Below are positions 14,370 through 45,408 of a stretch of DNA of 64,000 nucleotides, piece after piece. The DNA comes from Candidatus Omnitrophota bacterium (lineage in GTDB: Bacteria > Omnitrophota > Gorgyraeia > Zapsychrales > JANLHA01). The DNA is taken from positions 27 through 64,026 of the forward strand of contig JBBRHV010000007.1 of assembly GCA_038222225.1 (NCBI GenBank), in the 5' to 3' direction. The first letter of the stretch is position 1; every line of letters begins with the position of its first letter. The position numbers were made by a program, and so were the translations under genes. The notes under the pieces are model-generated. The model saw nothing but the letters and a program-made list of their open reading frames with translations, was not told where the DNA came from and did not search any database.

Positions 14370-15368
14370 CTAAACCACTTTCCCGGTATTGGGTTGATAA
14401 AAAATGATCTGCGACCCCGCATCCTCAAACTTGATCGGCACCTGCAAATATTTCTTGAGCGCCTGGCGCACCTGCGGCTGACGCTCCGGCGGAACGAAGA
14501 GAAGCACAAACCCTCCTCCGCCTGCGCCCAGCAGTTTCCCGCCTAAGGCCCCATTTTTCATCGCGGCTTCATACATGGCATCAATTTCAGGAGTGGCGAT
14601 CTTATCAGACAGCGACTTTTTCAGTTTCCAGCTTTCATCCAAAAGACGCCCAAAATCATTCAGCTCTCCATGATTAAGAATTTCCAGCGATTGAACAGCC
14701 ATCTCATACATCGTTTGCAATTCGGCTGTTCGGGCAGGAATATTACGAATTTGATGCTCGGCAATTTTAGAAGCCAGGCGCGAAAATCCGGTAAAAAATA
14801 TCATCAGATGATCCTGCAGGTTCTGGATCTTTTCTTTTCCAACAGTGACCTGCCTGACCTTCAAATGATTGTCGCCGCCGAATTCAATAAAATTAAAACC
14901 TCCGTGAGCGACCAGCGTCTGATCCTGACAACCGACAATATCCTTGCAAAGGTCCTGCTCAATATGAATGGCCTCGCGCGCCAACTGATCTTTGGTCGGC
15001 ATCGTGCCCAGAAGGGCATATAAAGAGTTGAGCAGTCCCACCGTGAAAGAAGAGCTGGAGCCCAATCCTGTGCGCGCCGGAAGGTCCCCGTCATGATGGA
15101 TCTCGATCCCCTCCTGAATCTTCAAGAACCGCAAAACCTCGCGCACGGCCGGATGGTCAATGTCGTCAATCGCCTGGACAAGTTCGATCTGTGAATACAT
15201 GATCCGTGATTTATGTTCAAAAAACGGCGGCAGGTAGCGGCAGGTGATATAACAATATTTATCGATGGTGGTGGCCAGAACCGCCCCTTTGTGATCTTGG
15301 AACCAATCCGGATAATCCGTTCCTCCACCGAAAAATGACACCCGAAATGGCGTGCGGCTAATAATCAT
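14370..15368 (-). CDS. hddA: GHMP kinase, HddA-like (D-glycero-alpha-D-manno-heptose 7-phosphate kinase).
   Basis: The N-terminus MIISRTPFRVSFFGGGTDYP is characteristic of heptose-7-P kinases. The GHMP ATP motif GLGSSSS is present. Confidence 0.65.
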   Translation of the reverse strand: MIISRTPFRVSFFGGGTDYPDWFQDHKGAVLATTIDKYCYITCRYLPPFFEHKSRIMYSQIELVQAIDDIDHPAVREVLRFLKIQEGIEIHHDGDLPARTGLGSSSSFTVGLLNSLYALLGTMPTKDQLAREAIHIEQDLCKDIVGCQDQTLVAHGGFNFIEFGGDNHLKVRQVTVGKEKIQNLQDHLMIFFTGFSRLASKIAEHQIRNIPARTAELQTMYEMAVQSLEILNHGELNDFGRLLDESWKLKKSLSDKIATPEIDAMYEAAMKNGALGGKLLGAGGGGFVLLFVPPERQPQVRQALKKYLQVPIKFEDAGSQIIFYQPNTGKVV

Positions 15369-16869
15369 ATCCTGCCTCCTCTAAAATCCTTCGTTTGAGT
15401 TTGATCTGAGTCGAACGCAATGTTTCATCCACGGCCAGCTGCCCGAATTTTTCTTTGAGCATCCCCAAAAATTTCGGATTCGTATGATAGATCATCCAGG
15501 CTTTGTCCCGAAACGCCAGAACCTCCTCGGCGCTCAGATGTTTGGTCGGCAACGGCTGCGCGTCATACGAATGCTGTGAAAATCCGGCATAGCTCCGGGG
15601 GAGTTTCCACCCTTCACGGATGGCCAAGCCATACAGCGGGCTTCCCGGATAAGCCATCGCGCAATAAAAATTCGCCATTTCTGTGTTTAACCTCATGGCC
15701 AGGTCCAGCGTCTCCTGCATACTCTGCCGATCATCTTCCGGCAGCCCAAAAATATAATTGGCGGCGACCGATATTCCGCTATTCCGGATCATCCGGACAA
15801 CGTCCTCGATGTCCACCTCTTCAAAGCGCCCCTTGGCGACACTGCGGCGGACGCGTGTATTTCCGCTTTCAATGCCCAGGGACAAAAAATTGATCCCGGC
15901 CCGTTTCATGATGTCCAAATATTCACCGCGGATCATATCCACCCGGGCGTAACACCAGATGTTGAAATCATATCCGCGCTCAATGATCAGTTCGCACAAT
16001 TTTAAAAAATGCTCTTTTTTAAAAACAAAAAGTTCATCGGCAATTTTGATATTCCTGATTCCCATTTTGGCGAAACGCTCGAAATCCCGGATAATGAATT
16101 CCGGGTCCCAGTGACGGAAAACCGCGCTTCCGTCCGAATAGATGTTTTCCTGACGGTTGATGATGTTGATCATACAGAACGAGCACTTCATGGGACACCC
16201 TAAACTCGTATAGATCGAAACAAACGGCTCACGCACACAGTCATTGGGGAGCGCGTGCCACAACGCCGTGCGGTAACGCTCCATCGGCAAAAGGTCCCAA
16301 GCCACGCCGGGCAGCTCACGCTCCAAATCCTGCTGCGCAACGATGGCAGACGGCGAATTAAGGATCATGCGCTCGCCGTCCCTCCAGCCTAAACCGCGGA
16401 CCTCCCCAAGGCTTAAAGAGAGGTCGGTTGCCAAAAGAGCGGAGATCGTATACACGCCCTCGTTTTGGCAGACAAAATCAATGCACCCGTGCTTCTCCAA
16501 GGTTTCATACGGTAAAGCCGCCACATGCGCGCCCACAAAAAGAATTTTTTGATCCAAAGCAGCGGAGCGCAATTTCTCCGCCAGGCGCAACGCGCCTTCC
16601 ATATTCTGCGTGGAAGCGCTGGGATGCTGCCCGTAAATCACAAAGGCCGCCAATCGAGGACGCGCTTCCATGATCCGCTGAATCGCTTCTTCGTCGCTTA
16701 GCTGCAGTGCTTCAGTATCCAGAATGTTTGTGACGAAGCCGTGCAAACGGACATGACCGGCAAGCATCCCGGCCCAAAGCGGCGGTTCGATCGCTGAATA
16801 GGCCTTATTTAAATCCTGATAAATAATTTCAGCGGCATTCGCATGTATGAAAAGAATATCTAACGGCAT
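15358..16869 (-). CDS. B12-binding radical SAM enzyme (class B rSAM; candidate C-methyltransferase or sugar-modifying rSAM).
   Basis: An N-terminal B12-binding domain is followed by the radical SAM core with CPMKCSFC (CX3CX2C). It is the first gene after intergenic repeat island 1. Confidence 0.75.
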   Translation of the reverse strand: MPLDILFIHANAAEIIYQDLNKAYSAIEPPLWAGMLAGHVRLHGFVTNILDTEALQLSDEEAIQRIMEARPRLAAFVIYGQHPSASTQNMEGALRLAEKLRSAALDQKILFVGAHVAALPYETLEKHGCIDFVCQNEGVYTISALLATDLSLSLGEVRGLGWRDGERMILNSPSAIVAQQDLERELPGVAWDLLPMERYRTALWHALPNDCVREPFVSIYTSLGCPMKCSFCMINIINRQENIYSDGSAVFRHWDPEFIIRDFERFAKMGIRNIKIADELFVFKKEHFLKLCELIIERGYDFNIWCYARVDMIRGEYLDIMKRAGINFLSLGIESGNTRVRRSVAKGRFEEVDIEDVVRMIRNSGISVAANYIFGLPEDDRQSMQETLDLAMRLNTEMANFYCAMAYPGSPLYGLAIREGWKLPRSYAGFSQHSYDAQPLPTKHLSAEEVLAFRDKAWMIYHTNPKFLGMLKEKFGQLAVDETLRSTQIKLKRRILEEAGYDY

Positions 16870-16924
16870 GATCCATTAACCTTCATAATGACACTAAGGC
16901 ACTAAAAAAATCAAAAAGAAATAA

Positions 16925-16966
16925 AATGTGTTTCAATGTGTTTCAATGTATTTCAATGTATTTCAG
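16925..16966. repeat. Tandem 10-bp repeats TTTCAATGTR, about 4 copies. On the minus strand this is the same unit (ACATTGAAAY) as in the 27891-27970 array.
   Basis: Read directly: gtgtttcaatgtgtttcaatgtatttcaatgtatttcag. Confidence 0.8.
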
Positions 16967-16995
16967 TTATATTTCGTTCATCTTTAGTTGTCTAT

Positions 16996-17030
16996 TGTTC
17001 TTTGTTTCTTGTTTCTTGTTTCTTGTTTCT
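16996..17030. repeat. Tandem heptamer TTGTTTC x5.
   Basis: Read directly: ttgttctttgtttcttgtttcttgtttcttgtttc. The island is flanked by the inverted repeats CACTAAGGCA (16892-16901) and TGCCTTAGTG (17044-17053). Confidence 0.7.
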
Positions 17031-17063
17031 CTAGTGTCTCAATGCCTTAGTGCCCTACAATTT

Positions 17064-17996
17064 TTATATATTCGCATACTGACTGCGCTTAATAATCTTA
17101 TACGCCTTGATCAATTCCGCAATGCCGGCCTGCAGCGAATGGTCCGGCTTAAATCCAGCAGCCTCGATCTTCGCGTTGGAAACAATATAATCCCGTTTGT
17201 CCGGATCTTCGTTGATGTCTGACTCAACAAAATAAAAATCCGGGATCACTTTTTTGATCTCTTCGCAAAGCTGCCACTTGCTTAAATTGGCGTCACTCAA
17301 ACCGACGTTATACGCTTCATTTTTCATCGCGTCAAAATGGTTCAGCCCATAAGAAAAAGCCTTGGCGACGTCGCGCACATGAATAAAATTCCGGCGGAAT
17401 TTCGCTTCAAAAATAACCAGGTAACGGTCATAGACAGCCCGGTAGGTAAAATCATTCACTAAAAGGTCCAGTCGCATGCGCGGGCTGACCCCAAACGCCG
17501 TTGCCAACCGCAATGTGATGGCGTTTCCGTCTTGAAGAATAGATTCTTCCGCCTCAACTTTCAGCTGACCATATAATGAGACCGGCCTCAATGGCGTCTG
17601 CTCCGTGCAAAGTTTGTCTCTCTCTCCTATGCCATAACCGCTATTGGTCGTTGGATAAATAATGATCTGGTTTTTACTGCGCAGTTTTAAGATCATCTGT
17701 ACTGCGCCAACGATCACGCCGCGCGCAGCATCCGGATCGGTCGCGCACAAAGGCGCCCCTGTTAGGCACGCCAGAGGAAAGACCGCGTCGGCCGTCTTCA
17801 TCAGGCGCTGCATCAACGAAGAATCCCTGGCATCTCCCCGCACAATATCCAAGTTGGGATTCACGCAGCAATCCAGCAACGAGCTCTGCTTATACATAAA
17901 ATTATCCACAACCGTAACGGTGTGGCCTTCCTCAAGAAAACGGGGAACCAGAACCGAACCAATATAACCGGCCCCGCCGGTGATCAAGATTTTCAT
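17064..17996 (-). CDS. NAD-dependent epimerase/dehydratase (extended SDR) with an intact GGAGYIGS, catalytic Ser and YGQLK.
   Basis: The Rossmann motif MKILITGGAGYIGS is present. TNSGYG and YGQLK form the S/YxxxK triad. Confidence 0.8.
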   Translation of the reverse strand: MKILITGGAGYIGSVLVPRFLEEGHTVTVVDNFMYKQSSLLDCCVNPNLDIVRGDARDSSLMQRLMKTADAVFPLACLTGAPLCATDPDAARGVIVGAVQMILKLRSKNQIIIYPTTNSGYGIGERDKLCTEQTPLRPVSLYGQLKVEAEESILQDGNAITLRLATAFGVSPRMRLDLLVNDFTYRAVYDRYLVIFEAKFRRNFIHVRDVAKAFSYGLNHFDAMKNEAYNVGLSDANLSKWQLCEEIKKVIPDFYFVESDINEDPDKRDYIVSNAKIEAAGFKPDHSLQAGIAELIKAYKIIKRSQYANI

Positions 17997-27717: not shown

Positions 27718-27890
27718 AGTTTTAATATTTATATTGATATTAAAGAAGCGGAATTATTCTAATGGAAAAATGGTTTTGTTGCAAGACGGAATTCAACTAA
27801 TCACGTGCAGCGAGTAGCGTACAATGCGACCAAAGGAAGCCCTGAATTTGGCGAAGGATGGAGTAAAAAATCCTGAAAAATATCGAAAAA

Positions 27891-27970
27891 CACATTGAAA
27901 TACATTAAAACATGATTGAAATATATTGAAATATATTGAAATACATTGAAACACATTGAAATATATTGAG
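27891..27970. repeat. Eight perfectly phased 10-bp tandem repeats, consensus AYAYATTGAA (one helical turn per unit). An inverted copy TTTCAATGTGTTTCC lies at 28130-28144, and TTGTTTC-like and CTTCTTCC repeats lie at 28116-28186.
   Basis: Read directly: cacattgaaa tacattaaaa catgattgaa atatattgaa atatattgaa atacattgaa acacattgaa atatattgag. Confidence 0.85.
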
Positions 27971-28206
27971 ATAAGTAGAAACCGGAGGAAAATGGGGACT
28001 GAACAAATTATTGCGTGGTCGGTTTTTTATTCTTGATGTGCTTATTTCACTTCAAAATATTTCAAATTTTTTTATTTGTCGGCTTTGATTTTCCTGAAAT
28101 TTGTGTATTGTTTTTTTTGTTTCCGTCTATTTCAATGTGTTTCCATTTGTTTCATCCATCACGCTTCTTCCTTCTTCCTTCTTGCATCCCGTGTCCCATT
28201 TACGTT

Positions 28207-33899: not shown

Positions 33900-34058
33900 A
33901 AGAGATCCCGCGGGGAGACACACCCTTTTTGTTCAAATGAACGATAAAATTATAATTATATGGCTAAAAAATAATAACAGAATACTATTATTAATAGTAA
34001 TGAATTCTTCAAAAAAACCAACCAATGCATAACTTATTTATTTCCAACACATAAGAAC

Positions 34059-34089
34059 GCCCAGGAACAAAATCTCTTTTTTCCTGGGC
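34059..34089 (-). terminator. Putative terminator hairpin after the dnaK-operon genes (CCCAGGAA ... TTCCTGGG).
   Basis: An 8-bp stem with a 13-nt loop. The downstream U content is only modest, so the call is weak. Confidence 0.3.
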
Positions 34090-34106
34090 ATGATTCAAAA
34101 AAGCTT

Positions 34107-34373
34107 TTACCCTTGGCAATTTCCCGCAACCGGGCATCCCCCGCCTGACCCGCTGGCCTGAGCAGGACATGTCTTTTGAGGACACGGCTTATTTTTGTAA
34201 TCCGTCTGATAAAACCCACTTCCCTTAAAAATCAAACCTGATCCGCTCCCGATCAAGCGGTGCAGCGTTTTCTTCTTGCAGACAGGGCATGTTATAAGCT
34301 TCGCCTCGGTCATAGACTGCATCTGCTCAAAAGCATGATCACAGCCGCTGCACTCGTATTGATATGTAGGCAT
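34107..34373 (-). CDS. FmdB-family zinc-ribbon protein with a Cys/Gly-rich tail.
   Basis: MPTYQYECSGCDHAFE...CPVCKK (CxxC-x20-CxxC) is present. Start taken at the internal Met 34373. Confidence 0.6.
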   Translation of the reverse strand: MPTYQYECSGCDHAFEQMQSMTEAKLITCPVCKKKTLHRLIGSGSGLIFKGSGFYQTDYKNKPCPQKTCPAQASGSGGGCPVAGNCQG

Positions 34374-34415
34374 CCTTCCCTCCCTGATAAATGAACGACA
34401 CAATCCGCACACTGC

Positions 34416-35570: not shown

Positions 35571-35630
35571 GTATTTTTTAAAGGCACTGGGACACTAGTT
35601 GATTTTTAGTGTCATCGTGCCGTAGTGTCT

Positions 35631-39069: not shown

Positions 39070-39075
39070 GCGCTA

Positions 39076-39103
39076 TTATAACAAAAAAGTTCTGCTTGTC
39101 AAT
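39076..39103 (-). promoter_or_regulatory. Consensus sigma-A promoter of the hrcA-grpE-dnaK-dnaJ operon (TTGACA-N16-TATAAT).
   Basis: The minus strand carries -35 TTGACA (39103-39098), a 16-nt spacer, and -10 TATAAT (39081-39076). It lies immediately upstream of the CIRCE site. Confidence 0.6.
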
Positions 39104-42530: not shown

Positions 42531-42569
42531 AACGGGTCCTTATTACGCGGTTTAATGATCAACGGTTTT

Positions 42570-42596
42570 CTGGCACTCTAGCCACTCGAGTGCCAA
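42570..42596. promoter_or_regulatory. CIRCE-like inverted repeat (CTGGCACTC-N9-GAGTGCCAA) upstream of clpB.
   Basis: The core GCACTC-N9-GAGTGC is identical to CIRCE. It lies 40 bp upstream of the clpB start. Confidence 0.6.
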
Positions 42597-42614
42597 ATCA
42601 CATCCAAAAAATTT

Positions 42615-42893
42615 TTACCCCTTGTCTTCTATCGTCAAAATAATCTTAATTCCGCTCAAATTCACTCTCTTTTCACCCATCAAATAATGAACATAATTTA
42701 AAACCTTAATCTGTTCCTTCGAATAACACCGGGTACATTTGCCAATCCGTTTCGGTGAAACAATGCCCATATCATCCAGTTTCCGCAACGTCCAAATCGG
42801 AATATCCACGATGCGACTCACAACCCCGATAATAAAAACCGGTTCATTTGGGTCCAGCTCAATATCAAATTGTTCAACATCAAAGTCTTCCAT
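42615..42893 (-). CDS. MerR-family HTH regulator, HspR-like.
   Basis: PVFIIGVVSRIVDIPIWTLRKLDDMGIVSPKR ... VNLSGIKIIL resembles HspR (VNLAGVKRIL). The start is taken at Met 42893 with an AGGAG RBS 7 nt upstream. Confidence 0.65.
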   Translation of the reverse strand: MEDFDVEQFDIELDPNEPVFIIGVVSRIVDIPIWTLRKLDDMGIVSPKRIGKCTRCYSKEQIKVLNYVHYLMGEKRVNLSGIKIILTIEDKG

Positions 42894-43142
42894 AAGCAAT
42901 CTCCTGAGCTCACTAGAAATATAACACAAGCTAACTATAATGTCAAGGTTATCTACCAAAAATATTTAGATAAGCTAACTATTAGACATTTGCGCCCCGC
43001 GTTCCTTACATTCTTTTAAGCCATCTCGCCCGCCTCCTTCTTAAGCGCTGCCTTCTCTAAAATAATAACGACAAGTCACGGAATGCATTCCCGAATATTT
43101 ATATTGATAAAATCTTATATTCAGATATAACTAAGATAAATA

Positions 43143-44319: not shown

Positions 44320-45408
44320 ATGAACATCGCGATCTTTCATAATTTCATGGATAATATCGGCGGGGCAGAAATCGTCACGCTGATCCTGTCCCGAGAGCTC
44401 CAAGCCGATATCTACACGACCACTATTGATCGCGACAAAATCCGCAAGATGGGATTTTCCTCTGACAACATTTACTCCATCGGAAACGTCCCGATCAATG
44501 CCCCGTTCCGTCAGCAAATCGCTCTCTGGCATTTTCGCCGTCTCAACCTGACAAACTGCTATGATTTTTTTATTATTGCCGGCGATTGGGCGATGTCTGC
44601 GGCCGTTCACAATAAACCCAATCTCTGGTACGTCCATTCTCCGATTCGGGAGATCTGGGACCTCTGCGCCTATATACGGAAAAACTTGGTCCATCCTTTC
44701 AAGCGTCCCCTGTTTGACCTGTGGGCGTCCTATAACCGAACCCTCAATCGATCCTATGTCCGTCATGTCGATCAATTGGCCTGCAACTCGCATAATACCG
44801 CTGCCCGCGTCAAAAAATATCTTAACCGCGAGGCAAAAGTCATCCACCCCCCCGTTGAGACAAAACGCTACCAATGTCTTGCGCCTGAAAACTATTGGCT
44901 TTCCGTCAACCGCCTCATTGGCCATAAACGCGTCAACCTCCAGATGGACGCCTTTCGAAAACTACCGGATGAAAAACTCATCATTGTCGGAAGTTACGAA
45001 CAATCCCAGCATTTCCGATCTTATGCCGAAATGATACAGGCGCAAAAACCCGAAAATGTCACGGTCACCAGCTGGGTTGATTCTGACGAGCTGATCCGGC
45101 TCTATGCTCACTGCAAGGGCTTTATCGCCACCGCCGCCGATGAAGACTTCGGAATGACACTCGTTGAAGCCATGGCGTCAGGCAAGCCGGTGATCGCAGC
45201 CAACGAAGGCGGGTACCGTGAAACCGTGACACCGCAAACAGGCGTTCTGATCGATTCGATCGATGCCGGACAATTGGCCTCGGAAATTCAAAAAATGAAC
45301 GTCCTACTTAAAAAAGACCCCCATCATTATCAGCAGGCCTGTTTGGCTCAGACGAAAAAATTTGATACCAGTGAATTTATAAACAAGATCGGAAGTTTGC
45401 TGCCTTGA
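44320..45408 (+). CDS. Glycosyltransferase family 4 (GT-B fold).
   Basis: The C-terminal motif EDFGMTLVEAMASGKPVIA (the EX7E region) is present. Confidence 0.75.
   Translation: MNIAIFHNFMDNIGGAEIVTLILSRELQADIYTTTIDRDKIRKMGFSSDNIYSIGNVPINAPFRQQIALWHFRRLNLTNCYDFFIIAGDWAMSAAVHNKPNLWYVHSPIREIWDLCAYIRKNLVHPFKRPLFDLWASYNRTLNRSYVRHVDQLACNSHNTAARVKKYLNREAKVIHPPVETKRYQCLAPENYWLSVNRLIGHKRVNLQMDAFRKLPDEKLIIVGSYEQSQHFRSYAEMIQAQKPENVTVTSWVDSDELIRLYAHCKGFIATAADEDFGMTLVEAMASGKPVIAANEGGYRETVTPQTGVLIDSIDAGQLASEIQKMNVLLKKDPHHYQQACLAQTKKFDTSEFINKIGSLLP

Follow-up and report, generated by a model that had tools for sequence, protein, structure and literature searches.

The locus described here raises the question of what kind of element fills the one long spacer in an otherwise closely packed bacterial glycan operon. 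The window, by which we mean the whole stretch of 64,000 nucleotides that was analysed, comes from a Candidatus Omnitrophota metagenome-assembled genome (MAG), and at 16870-17063 it holds a 194-bp island with a GC content of 0.29, at the minus-strand junction from an SDR/epimerase gene to a B12-binding radical-SAM (rSAM) gene. A first-pass annotation had rightly picked out this island as the sole sizeable non-coding stretch of the operon (counted there as 193 bp), since the open reading frame (ORF) map has no other gap of at least 50 bp between 8708 and 27717, and had likened it to a miniature inverted-repeat transposable element (MITE) or a helically phased protein-binding array. We find that the island is one example of a fast-evolving tandem-repeat hairpin that sits between operon genes of many Omnitrophota, and that it is neither a mobile element nor a conserved protein-binding site. 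As to its role, we tentatively favor, at somewhat less than even confidence, a slippage-built intercistronic hairpin that would be transcribed in the operon mRNA and exert an effect there as double-stranded RNA.

Structurally, the island comprises two tandem arrays enclosed by inverted-repeat arms, arranged as follows (coordinates are window positions, all genes around the island lie on the minus strand, and L054, L055 and L133 are three close relatives of the locus).

16870-17063, minus strand: whole intercistronic spacer, from the ORF map and Pfam, between the SDR stop codon (17064-17066) and the rSAM start codon (16867-16869)
17043-17054, minus strand: outer 5' arm on the transcript, GGCACTAAGGCA, of GRCACTAA-type units, starting 9 nt past the SDR stop codon
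17031-17038, minus strand: second GRCAC unit of the 5' side, GACACTAG, paired in the predicted stem
16988-17029, minus strand: heptamer array forming the inner 5' tier, with four exact GAAACAA copies (17002-17029) and two degenerate ones (16988-17001)
16925-16965, minus strand: decamer array, 4.1 copies of GAAAYACATT on the transcript strand (TRF), in the apical part of the predicted hairpin
16904-16926, minus strand: U-rich tract on the transcript, UUUUAUUUCUUUUUGAUUUUUUU, a degenerate complement of the heptamer tier, identified by complementarity, fold and homology to T-rich tracts of L054, L055 and L133
16890-16903, minus strand: outer 3' arm on the transcript, AGUGCCUUAGUGUC, ending 20 nt ahead of the rSAM start codon and aligning with the 3' arms of relatives
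16867-16884, minus strand: Shine-Dalgarno-like GAAGG (16880-16884) and the rSAM ATG, by sequence reading, both unpaired in the predicted fold

On the transcript strand, the order is thus UAA, 9 nt, GGCACUAAGGCA, UUGA, GACACUAG, (GAAACAA)x4 with its two degenerate copies, an A-rich linker, (GAAAYACAUU)x4, UUUUAUUUCUUUUUGAUUUUUUU, AGUGCCUUAGUGUC, AUUAUGAAGGUUAAUGGAUC and AUG. Both arrays reported by the first-pass annotation are real, with TRF returning the heptamers at period 7 (4.1 copies, 100% match) and the decamers at period 10 (4.1 copies, 96% match, 16925-16965), and the two units have a GAAACA core in common. The copy numbers need revision: of the four TTTCAATGTR copies originally counted, three are exact in that register (16931, 16941 and 16951) and the full four emerge in the AATGTRTTTC register, and the five TTGTTTC copies reduce to the four exact heptamers listed above. 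The outer inverted repeat is indeed perfect over 10 nt (CACTAAGGCA at 16892-16901 versus TGCCTTAGTG at 17043-17052, the latter one base off from where it had been placed), or 12 bp with one G-U pair, and the further pairing partners proposed for it, GACACTA (16890) and TAGTGTC (17032), are both found in the island. The heptamer array and the U-rich tract (16905-16925) are 76% complementary, with partial pairing between them. The predicted RNA fold (−35.3 kcal/mol, z-score −2.59 against shuffles) has a 12-bp outer stem followed by imperfect heptamer/U-tract pairing, with the decamers apical and the Shine-Dalgarno sequence free. Considered alone, the inverted repeat is weak evidence because 2.7% of island shuffles contain a perfect one of at least 10 nt; it becomes convincing only through the homologous arms found in relatives. 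An independent assembly of the same organism (Logan SRR19962012; L001, L053) is identical to the window across the overlap and in the same orientation that far, and its contigs break inside the island, one stopping directly past the heptamer array and the next starting 108 nt into rSAM. This need not signal repeat heterogeneity: one of the breaks lies in unique coding sequence, and low coverage is an equally likely cause.

Evolutionarily, the orthologous junction in relatives is what identifies the element. Exact-protein look-ups and one metagenome scan yielded 85 related Omnitrophota loci (86 with the window), and the distance from SDR stop to rSAM start could be measured in 79 of these: about half have at most 15 bp, 31 have 35-258 bp and 5 have more. 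The gene order of the operon is kept in relatives, and since the SDR-rSAM order is conserved in all 79 loci, the island is an insertion into an old junction; judging from these gene orders, it interrupts that junction and is not a seam joining two acquired gene blocks, and the earlier description of it as "splitting" the operon was overstated. Expanded spacers are mostly predicted to be long hairpins (z ≤ −2.3 in 19 of the 20 spacers of at least 86 nt), with stems that start 0-19 nt past the stop codon and usually end 11-20 nt ahead of the ATG. Tandem 7-8-nt units build up both arms in at least 13 loci, and within each locus the 3' arm repeats the reverse complement of the 5' unit; the unit sequence is lineage-specific, yet the arms are mutually complementary, as these examples illustrate.

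L054: four GACACAN units
L055 and L133: four GRCACTNN units
L058: ten GTGAAGN units versus four NCTTCAC units
L098: GARCACAR
L060: GNCACAN
L068: GGTCACCN
L072: TCACNNG versus GGTGACN
L062: GGCTCAT
L105 and L106: GTKAATG

Heptamers form the arms in L054, L058, L060, L062, L072, L105 and L106, and the window's own GAAACAA heptamers and decamers are absent from the junctions of these repeat-armed relatives. Homology is seen with the three close relatives, in which the window's U-rich tract, 3' arm and ribosome-binding site can be aligned and whose arms are homologous to the GRCACTAA units of the window; tandem units homologous to the outer 5' arm occur in L055 and L133. Among these aligned loci, length changes by whole units (L055 and L133 differ by a single octamer, 8 nt, and L055 differs from the window by 15 nt), which is direct evidence of descent with slippage and, at an orthologous site, points to vertical descent and not to re-insertion. 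Individual alignment columns within the arms are not comparable, because repeat arms pair in several registers. Single folds of the relatives' hairpins are more stable relative to shuffles than that of the window (predicted z of −5.18 for L054, −3.75 for L055, −6.30 for L058 and −4.48 for L133), and together with the alignable 3' arm, U-rich tract and ribosome-binding site they bear out the earlier suggestion that the termini could close a long-range stem on a read-through transcript.

The same kind of element recurs at other sites, beginning with the window itself, in which GRCACTAN units occur at two sites and the pattern GRCACNNNGRCAC has 4 matches against 0.16 expected.

35583-35629, minus strand: second hairpin, of GRCACTAN octamers, between dnaK and dnaJ: GACACTAC GGCACGAT GACACTAA, loop, TAGTGTCC CAGTGCCT

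This hairpin (z −5.17) lies 18.6 kb from the island within an hrcA-grpE-dnaK-dnaJ operon and belongs to the unit family of the island's arms, and its arms are again tandem units and not one fixed palindrome. Within the glycan operon, expansions are also seen at the epimerase-SDR junction (11 of 49 loci) and at the GHMP-nucleotidyltransferase junction (20 of 60), mostly as hairpins again and some of them repeat-armed. At the overlapping rSAM-GHMP junction, none of 77 loci has an expansion to 35-300 nt (one has a 361-nt gap). A function specific to the SDR-rSAM junction is weakened by these figures, because two other non-overlapping junctions expand at similar rates. Within single genomes, L072 reuses its GGTGAC unit at two junctions, and L054 and L098 have different units at different sites. 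Across the 521 kb of these loci we counted 54 tandem arrays, of which 20 are of period 7, 10 of period 14 and 7 of period 8; the only period-10 array is that of the window. As far as these sequences tell, repeat-armed hairpins are common in this Omnitrophota clade wherever neighboring genes do not overlap.

Two further groups of hairpins were observed in these loci. In L054 (18446-18741), a 296-nt element between phosphatase-like and glycosyltransferase genes has CGTGAAAA units past the stop codon and TTTTCACG units ahead of the ribosome-binding site, with a predicted fold of −99 kcal/mol; an N run lies just upstream in the contig (18190-18289). Separately, a REP-like hairpin, GGATTCCCGC-TTTC-GCGGGAATGACA, is conserved in operon spacers of many Omnitrophota lineages (L065, L083, L084, L086, L087, L094, L099, L101, L110, L111, L115, L118 and L135, with the motif core only at window position 45151). 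Its GGAATGACA motif occurs 27 times in the 521 kb, 25 times on the operon strand, although about 10 of these are tandem 23-nt copies in L084 and L086, so that independent sites are fewer. In those two loci (2307-2494), the SDR-rSAM spacer itself contains six tandem 23-nt units (GGAATGACAAGTTTTTAAATGTT), an outgrowth of the REP-like hairpin that is unstructured (z +0.17).

Functionally, we posit that a palindromic spacer grew by slippage inside the old, originally compact SDR-rSAM junction, with outer arms derived from GRCACTAA-type units, an inner GAAACAA tier facing a U-rich complement, and apical decamers that would have expanded recently. Since both arms are tandem units, whole units could be gained or lost without losing self-complementarity, and the hairpin could re-pair in several registers. 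Most likely, the operon mRNA includes the element, and its folding there would bring the SDR stop codon and the rSAM ribosome-binding site to about 30 nt apart. As a double-stranded RNA element it may cause the message to be processed, by a double-strand-specific RNase, or stabilised, by which expression of the distal rSAM, GHMP-kinase and nucleotidyltransferase block would be uncoupled or tuned, with repeat number acting as a slow rheostat; alternatively, it may keep a long untranslated spacer from causing polarity. We infer co-transcription, folding in vivo and the regulatory role, the last by analogy with the hmw hairpin of Haemophilus influenzae and with REP/BIME biology. Two other transcriptional roles are not supported: there is no sigma-70-like promoter (at least 9 of 12 matches) in 16870-17063 on either strand, which speaks against an internal promoter, and a scan of the gene strand of the island for a terminator (a GC-rich stem with a U-run after it) was negative; the 3' arm is followed by AUUAUGAAGG.

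Several observations weigh against this account. About half of the lineages have no element at the SDR-rSAM junction, and therefore nothing essential depends on one. The window's own fold beats shuffles only modestly, because the interior of the island consists mostly of unpaired direct repeats. In 35 of 50 spacers the sense strand folds more stably than the antisense one (35 vs 15, p = 0.007), but this bias was gone after controlling for G+T content (21 vs 31, p = 0.22); the z-scores of expanded spacers show no sense bias, and the 5' arms have no purine bias (24 vs 22). Thus, nothing separates RNA-level selection from a plain DNA palindrome. The decamer array, in addition, is not explained beyond a "recent expansion in the loop", and its recurrence in a second island of the window and in another phylum hints at something more.

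Given the lack of an RNA-specific signature after composition control, a neutral or selfish DNA palindrome is almost as likely, and we regard it as a quite possible, though not the leading, explanation. Under this alternative, slippage and intrastrand template switching build repeat-armed palindromes in tolerant spacers with no regulatory role, self-complementarity follows from the mutational process or from survivorship (structured inserts avoid polarity), and the heptamers and decamers are merely the youngest expansions. It accommodates the patchy presence and absence across lineages, the unrelated units at the same junction, the expansion of all the non-overlapping junctions that were tested but never of the overlapping one, the perfect recent copies, the whole-unit indels between close relatives and the missing strand asymmetry. 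Long palindromes are generally unstable in bacterial DNA, and it accounts less well for their being frequent and long here despite this, down to −99 kcal/mol in L054. Local slippage alone also does not explain why unit families are common to distant sites in one genome, and the stems consistently spare the stop codon and usually the ribosome-binding site. In its favor, again, the over-representation of heptamers in bacteria has been ascribed to polymerase slippage (PMC4692102).

A regulatory array at the DNA level appears improbable to us. It would have the decamers, and perhaps the heptamers, bind an oligomerising protein (e.g., a winged-helix response regulator or a nucleoid-associated protein) or form curved DNA, with the island and a second decamer-bearing region, island 2, coordinating the two halves of the glycan operon. 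The recurrence of the decamer some 11 kb away, reported by the first-pass annotation, holds and is more extensive than reported.

27888-27973, no strand assigned: main decamer array of island 2, with 8.5 copies in the orientation opposite to that of the first island, upstream of the ROK gene that heads the operon
28130-28154, no strand assigned: island 2 distal short array, of GAAACAA and GAAACACATT units, oriented as in the first island

The exact 10-bp phasing, the decamer at both ends of the 11-kb ROK-to-SDR block, and the GAAACA core in decamer and heptamer alike all suit such an array, as does the position of island 2 upstream of a promoter-like site for the first gene of the operon (TTGCAA-17-TAGAAT, 27784->27756, in front of the ROK gene and downstream of the island 2 decamers). 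Conservation does not: decamers are absent from all 85 related Omnitrophota loci, orthologous junctions included, which leaves the window alone among 86 and led us to reject a conserved operator, so that if such a role exists at all it would be for this one genome. The gene strand of the first island is devoid of a sigma-70-like promoter, though the organism uses canonical ones, as shown by two minus-strand sites elsewhere in the window, TTGACA-16-TATAAT (12/12, 39075-39102) upstream of hrcA and TTGACA-17-TATATT (11/12, 42918-42946) upstream of a small MerR/HspR-like ORF preceding clpB, and no candidate regulator adjoins the island. Over the whole window, the decamer with one mismatch is not enriched (13 seen vs 12.4 expected), with 10 of the 13 inside the two AT-rich islands. 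Island 2 was also considered as a hairpin and rejected, since the region folds no better than shuffles (z −0.26); a further heptamer array there (28164-28183, GAAGGAA/GAAGAAG type, 2.9 copies, 100% match) lies about 20 nt downstream of a GGDEF stop codon.

Beyond this clade, we scanned 185,579 species genomes for three tandem TTTCAATRTR units and obtained 51 loci, about 37 of them from Bacteroidales/Bacteroidia MAGs and often several per MAG, with the remainder in Ignavibacteria, Lewinellaceae and scattered others; the window's genome is not among them. The Bacteroidia with these arrays include an isolate, Mariniflexile jejuense CCUG 62414 (L051). That the decamer forms intergenic arrays in so many Bacteroidia MAGs could be taken in favor of a binding array. 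These islands, however, are long composites of drifting 10-nt units with a TATTTC core, reaching up to ~39 copies (25-39 in the arrays), flanked by 7-, 8- and 9-nt arrays, and their orientation to neighboring genes is not fixed. Such satellite-like dynamics identify the decamer as a recurrent long simple-sequence repeat and not a conserved operator. An IMG/VR scan gave only 3 matches, and therefore no phage link, and a string search of the literature for the unit found nothing. In the composite islands (L002-L052), an inverted GGAAATAAAT-type array is often ~100 nt away, and L006, L012, L025 and L038 have a common motif, TTACCGAACTATTG, 40-50 nt downstream of the decamer array.

That the island is a miniature mobile element (a MITE or REPIN-like doublet whose ends are recognised by a transposase) we consider very unlikely. 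The terminal inverted repeats, the dnaK-dnaJ hairpin with the same unit, and a RAYT-like gene in the window would suit this idea, but target-site duplication is absent (no direct repeat is common to the flanks AAATTGTAG and ATTATGAAGG), and the 64 kb contain no second full-length copy, only the short dnaK-dnaJ hairpin with the same unit. The MITE interpretation of the first-pass annotation was therefore rejected, the arms being tandem short units that differ by lineage and that slip at an orthologous site, as expected of vertical descent. The candidate enzyme, an IS200-like Y1 transposase (PF01797, RAYT-like, 7788-8525, minus strand), is encoded just downstream of the GT2 gene, where L054 has a phosphatase-like gene and a repeat-armed hairpin. 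It is the only transposase in the window and is bracketed by an inverted repeat of its own (13 nt perfect, ~24 nt near-perfect), CGCCTCAATTCTC at 7767-7779 and GAGAATTGAGGCG at 8689-8701. These flanks are unrelated to GRCACTA, and a REP/RAYT element was discarded on that ground.

Finally, an inverton, in which a recombinase flips the ~140-bp segment between the 10-12-nt inverted repeats and so switches the distal surface-glycan genes on or off, can be set aside as extremely improbable, because the island contains no promoter-like site in either orientation, the flanking genes scanned with Pfam include no serine or tyrosine invertase (only the Y1 transposase ~8.4 kb away), the Logan assembly agrees in orientation over the part that it covers, and the relatives' arms abut the stop codon and ribosome-binding site and enclose only a loop.

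A broader and more speculative proposal, which we think unlikely but worth stating, is that Omnitrophota may carry an undescribed, self-renewing "zipper" class of elements, of which a 10-nt form may occur in some Bacteroidia and Ignavibacteria. These would be hairpins with complementary tandem 7-8-nt arms; a process templated by the hairpin or dependent on some factor would let them arise and spread within a genome, and they would serve as tunable double-stranded RNA processing sites in operon mRNAs, with TATTTCAATG-type decamer arrays as a lattice for a shared DNA- or RNA-binding protein.

In terms of gene content, the two genes that flank the island are as follows.

17064-17996, minus strand: NAD-dependent epimerase/SDR gene (Pfam)
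15358-16869, minus strand: B12-binding radical-SAM gene (Pfam), with protein homologues named Candidatus Omnitrophota/Omnitrophica

Upstream of the island, the operon runs ROK, LptD, two UDP-sugar dehydrogenases, epimerase, E1 alpha and beta, epimerase and SDR, and downstream it continues with rSAM, GHMP kinase, nucleotidyltransferase, aminotransferase, deacetylase, GT9 glycosyltransferase, a second aminotransferase and GT2 glycosyltransferase. The whole window has no Rfam match at gathering score, and no tRNAs were found in it. Our gene list was limited to ORFs of at least 150 amino acids, and the apparent gaps at 33924-34415 and 42531-43142 stem from that cut-off; each holds a small ORF, by eye a CxxC zinc-ribbon FmdB-like protein in one case and a MerR-type helix-turn-helix protein in the other.

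For decades, heptamer repeats have been on record from the intergenic DNA of cyanobacteria, Xanthomonas and Beggiatoaceae, without consensus on their function. The present analysis adds Omnitrophota as a phylum with such repeats and offers a natural experiment, in which one conserved operon junction across ~80 lineages bears repeat-armed hairpins with unrelated units that change by whole units. It makes two questions testable: how arm complementarity is kept while unit sequence turns over, and whether such hairpins tune expression within operons, as the hmw hairpin of H. influenzae does. For genome annotation, it counsels caution against labelling such islands MITEs, promoters or operators.

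Among known systems, the closest analogue is found upstream of hmw1A and hmw2A in H. influenzae, where a heptamer tract in the 5' untranslated region forms one side of a long hairpin, which is cleaved by RNase III and sets expression (PMC12721329). Both systems place a tandem heptamer tract upstream of a surface-structure gene as an arm of a long hairpin, here a predicted one (z −2.59, and −3.75 to −6.3 in orthologues). In hmw, repeat number alters the structure; here, whole-unit indels separate species-level relatives. Unlike the element described here, which is intercistronic with both arms built of repeats, the hmw repeats are in a promoter-proximal 5' untranslated region, and their pairing partner is a G-rich arm without repeats; experiments on hmw have shown RNase III cleavage and phase variation, whereas the Omnitrophota element is known from sequence and predicted folds.

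Among heptamer repeats, the intergenic GGGAATC of Xanthomonas and GGGGAYT of Nostoc often form convergent inverted pairs (PMC4692102). Like these, the Omnitrophota elements have nearby inverted heptamers that could form stem-loops, at sites kept between relatives while length and sequence vary; unlike them, with one G-rich, quadruplex-prone unit genome-wide, the units here are not G-rich, vary by lineage and site, and always make up two arms of one hairpin. The STRR heptanucleotide repeats of cyanobacteria are likewise abundant intergenic tandem heptamers. With these and other long heptamer repeats the island has in common at least three tandem 7-nt units in non-coding DNA (GAAACAA x4), and period 7 is over-represented in the lineage. 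A related case is that of the TAACTGA heptamers of Beggiatoaceae, Cyanobacteria and Bacteroidetes, which form one-sided intergenic arrays (PMC4679880). The resemblance to STRR and TAACTGA repeats extends to abundance in intergenic regions near start codons and a patchy phylogenetic spread, but those are mostly one-sided direct arrays of a fixed unit, in contrast to the complementary paired arms seen here.

Like the REP, BIME and REPIN elements of proteobacteria, the hairpins lie in intergenic and intercistronic positions, and they may form genome-specific families. REP/BIME elements affect mRNA stability and transcript processing. In REP families a single palindrome is conserved and also flanks the cognate RAYT, whereas the arms described here are built of tandem short units and the repeats on either side of the RAYT-like gene are unrelated to them. 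MITEs such as the Correia elements of Neisseria similarly have terminal inverted repeats and, as is proposed here, lie in co-transcribed spacers and form hairpins that RNase III could cleave, but the Omnitrophota element has neither a target-site duplication nor conserved full-length copies in the window, and it descends vertically with slippage at an orthologous site. The decamers recall the direct-repeat operators of OmpR/PhoB and plasmid iterons in their head-to-tail units and 10-bp spacing, but they lack conservation across orthologous regions, have neither promoter nor regulator next to them, and in arrays elsewhere run to dozens of copies. Relative to the heptamer arrays known so far, what sets this case apart is the phylum, the diversity of units, the construction of both arms from repeats and the recurrent placement between the genes of operons.

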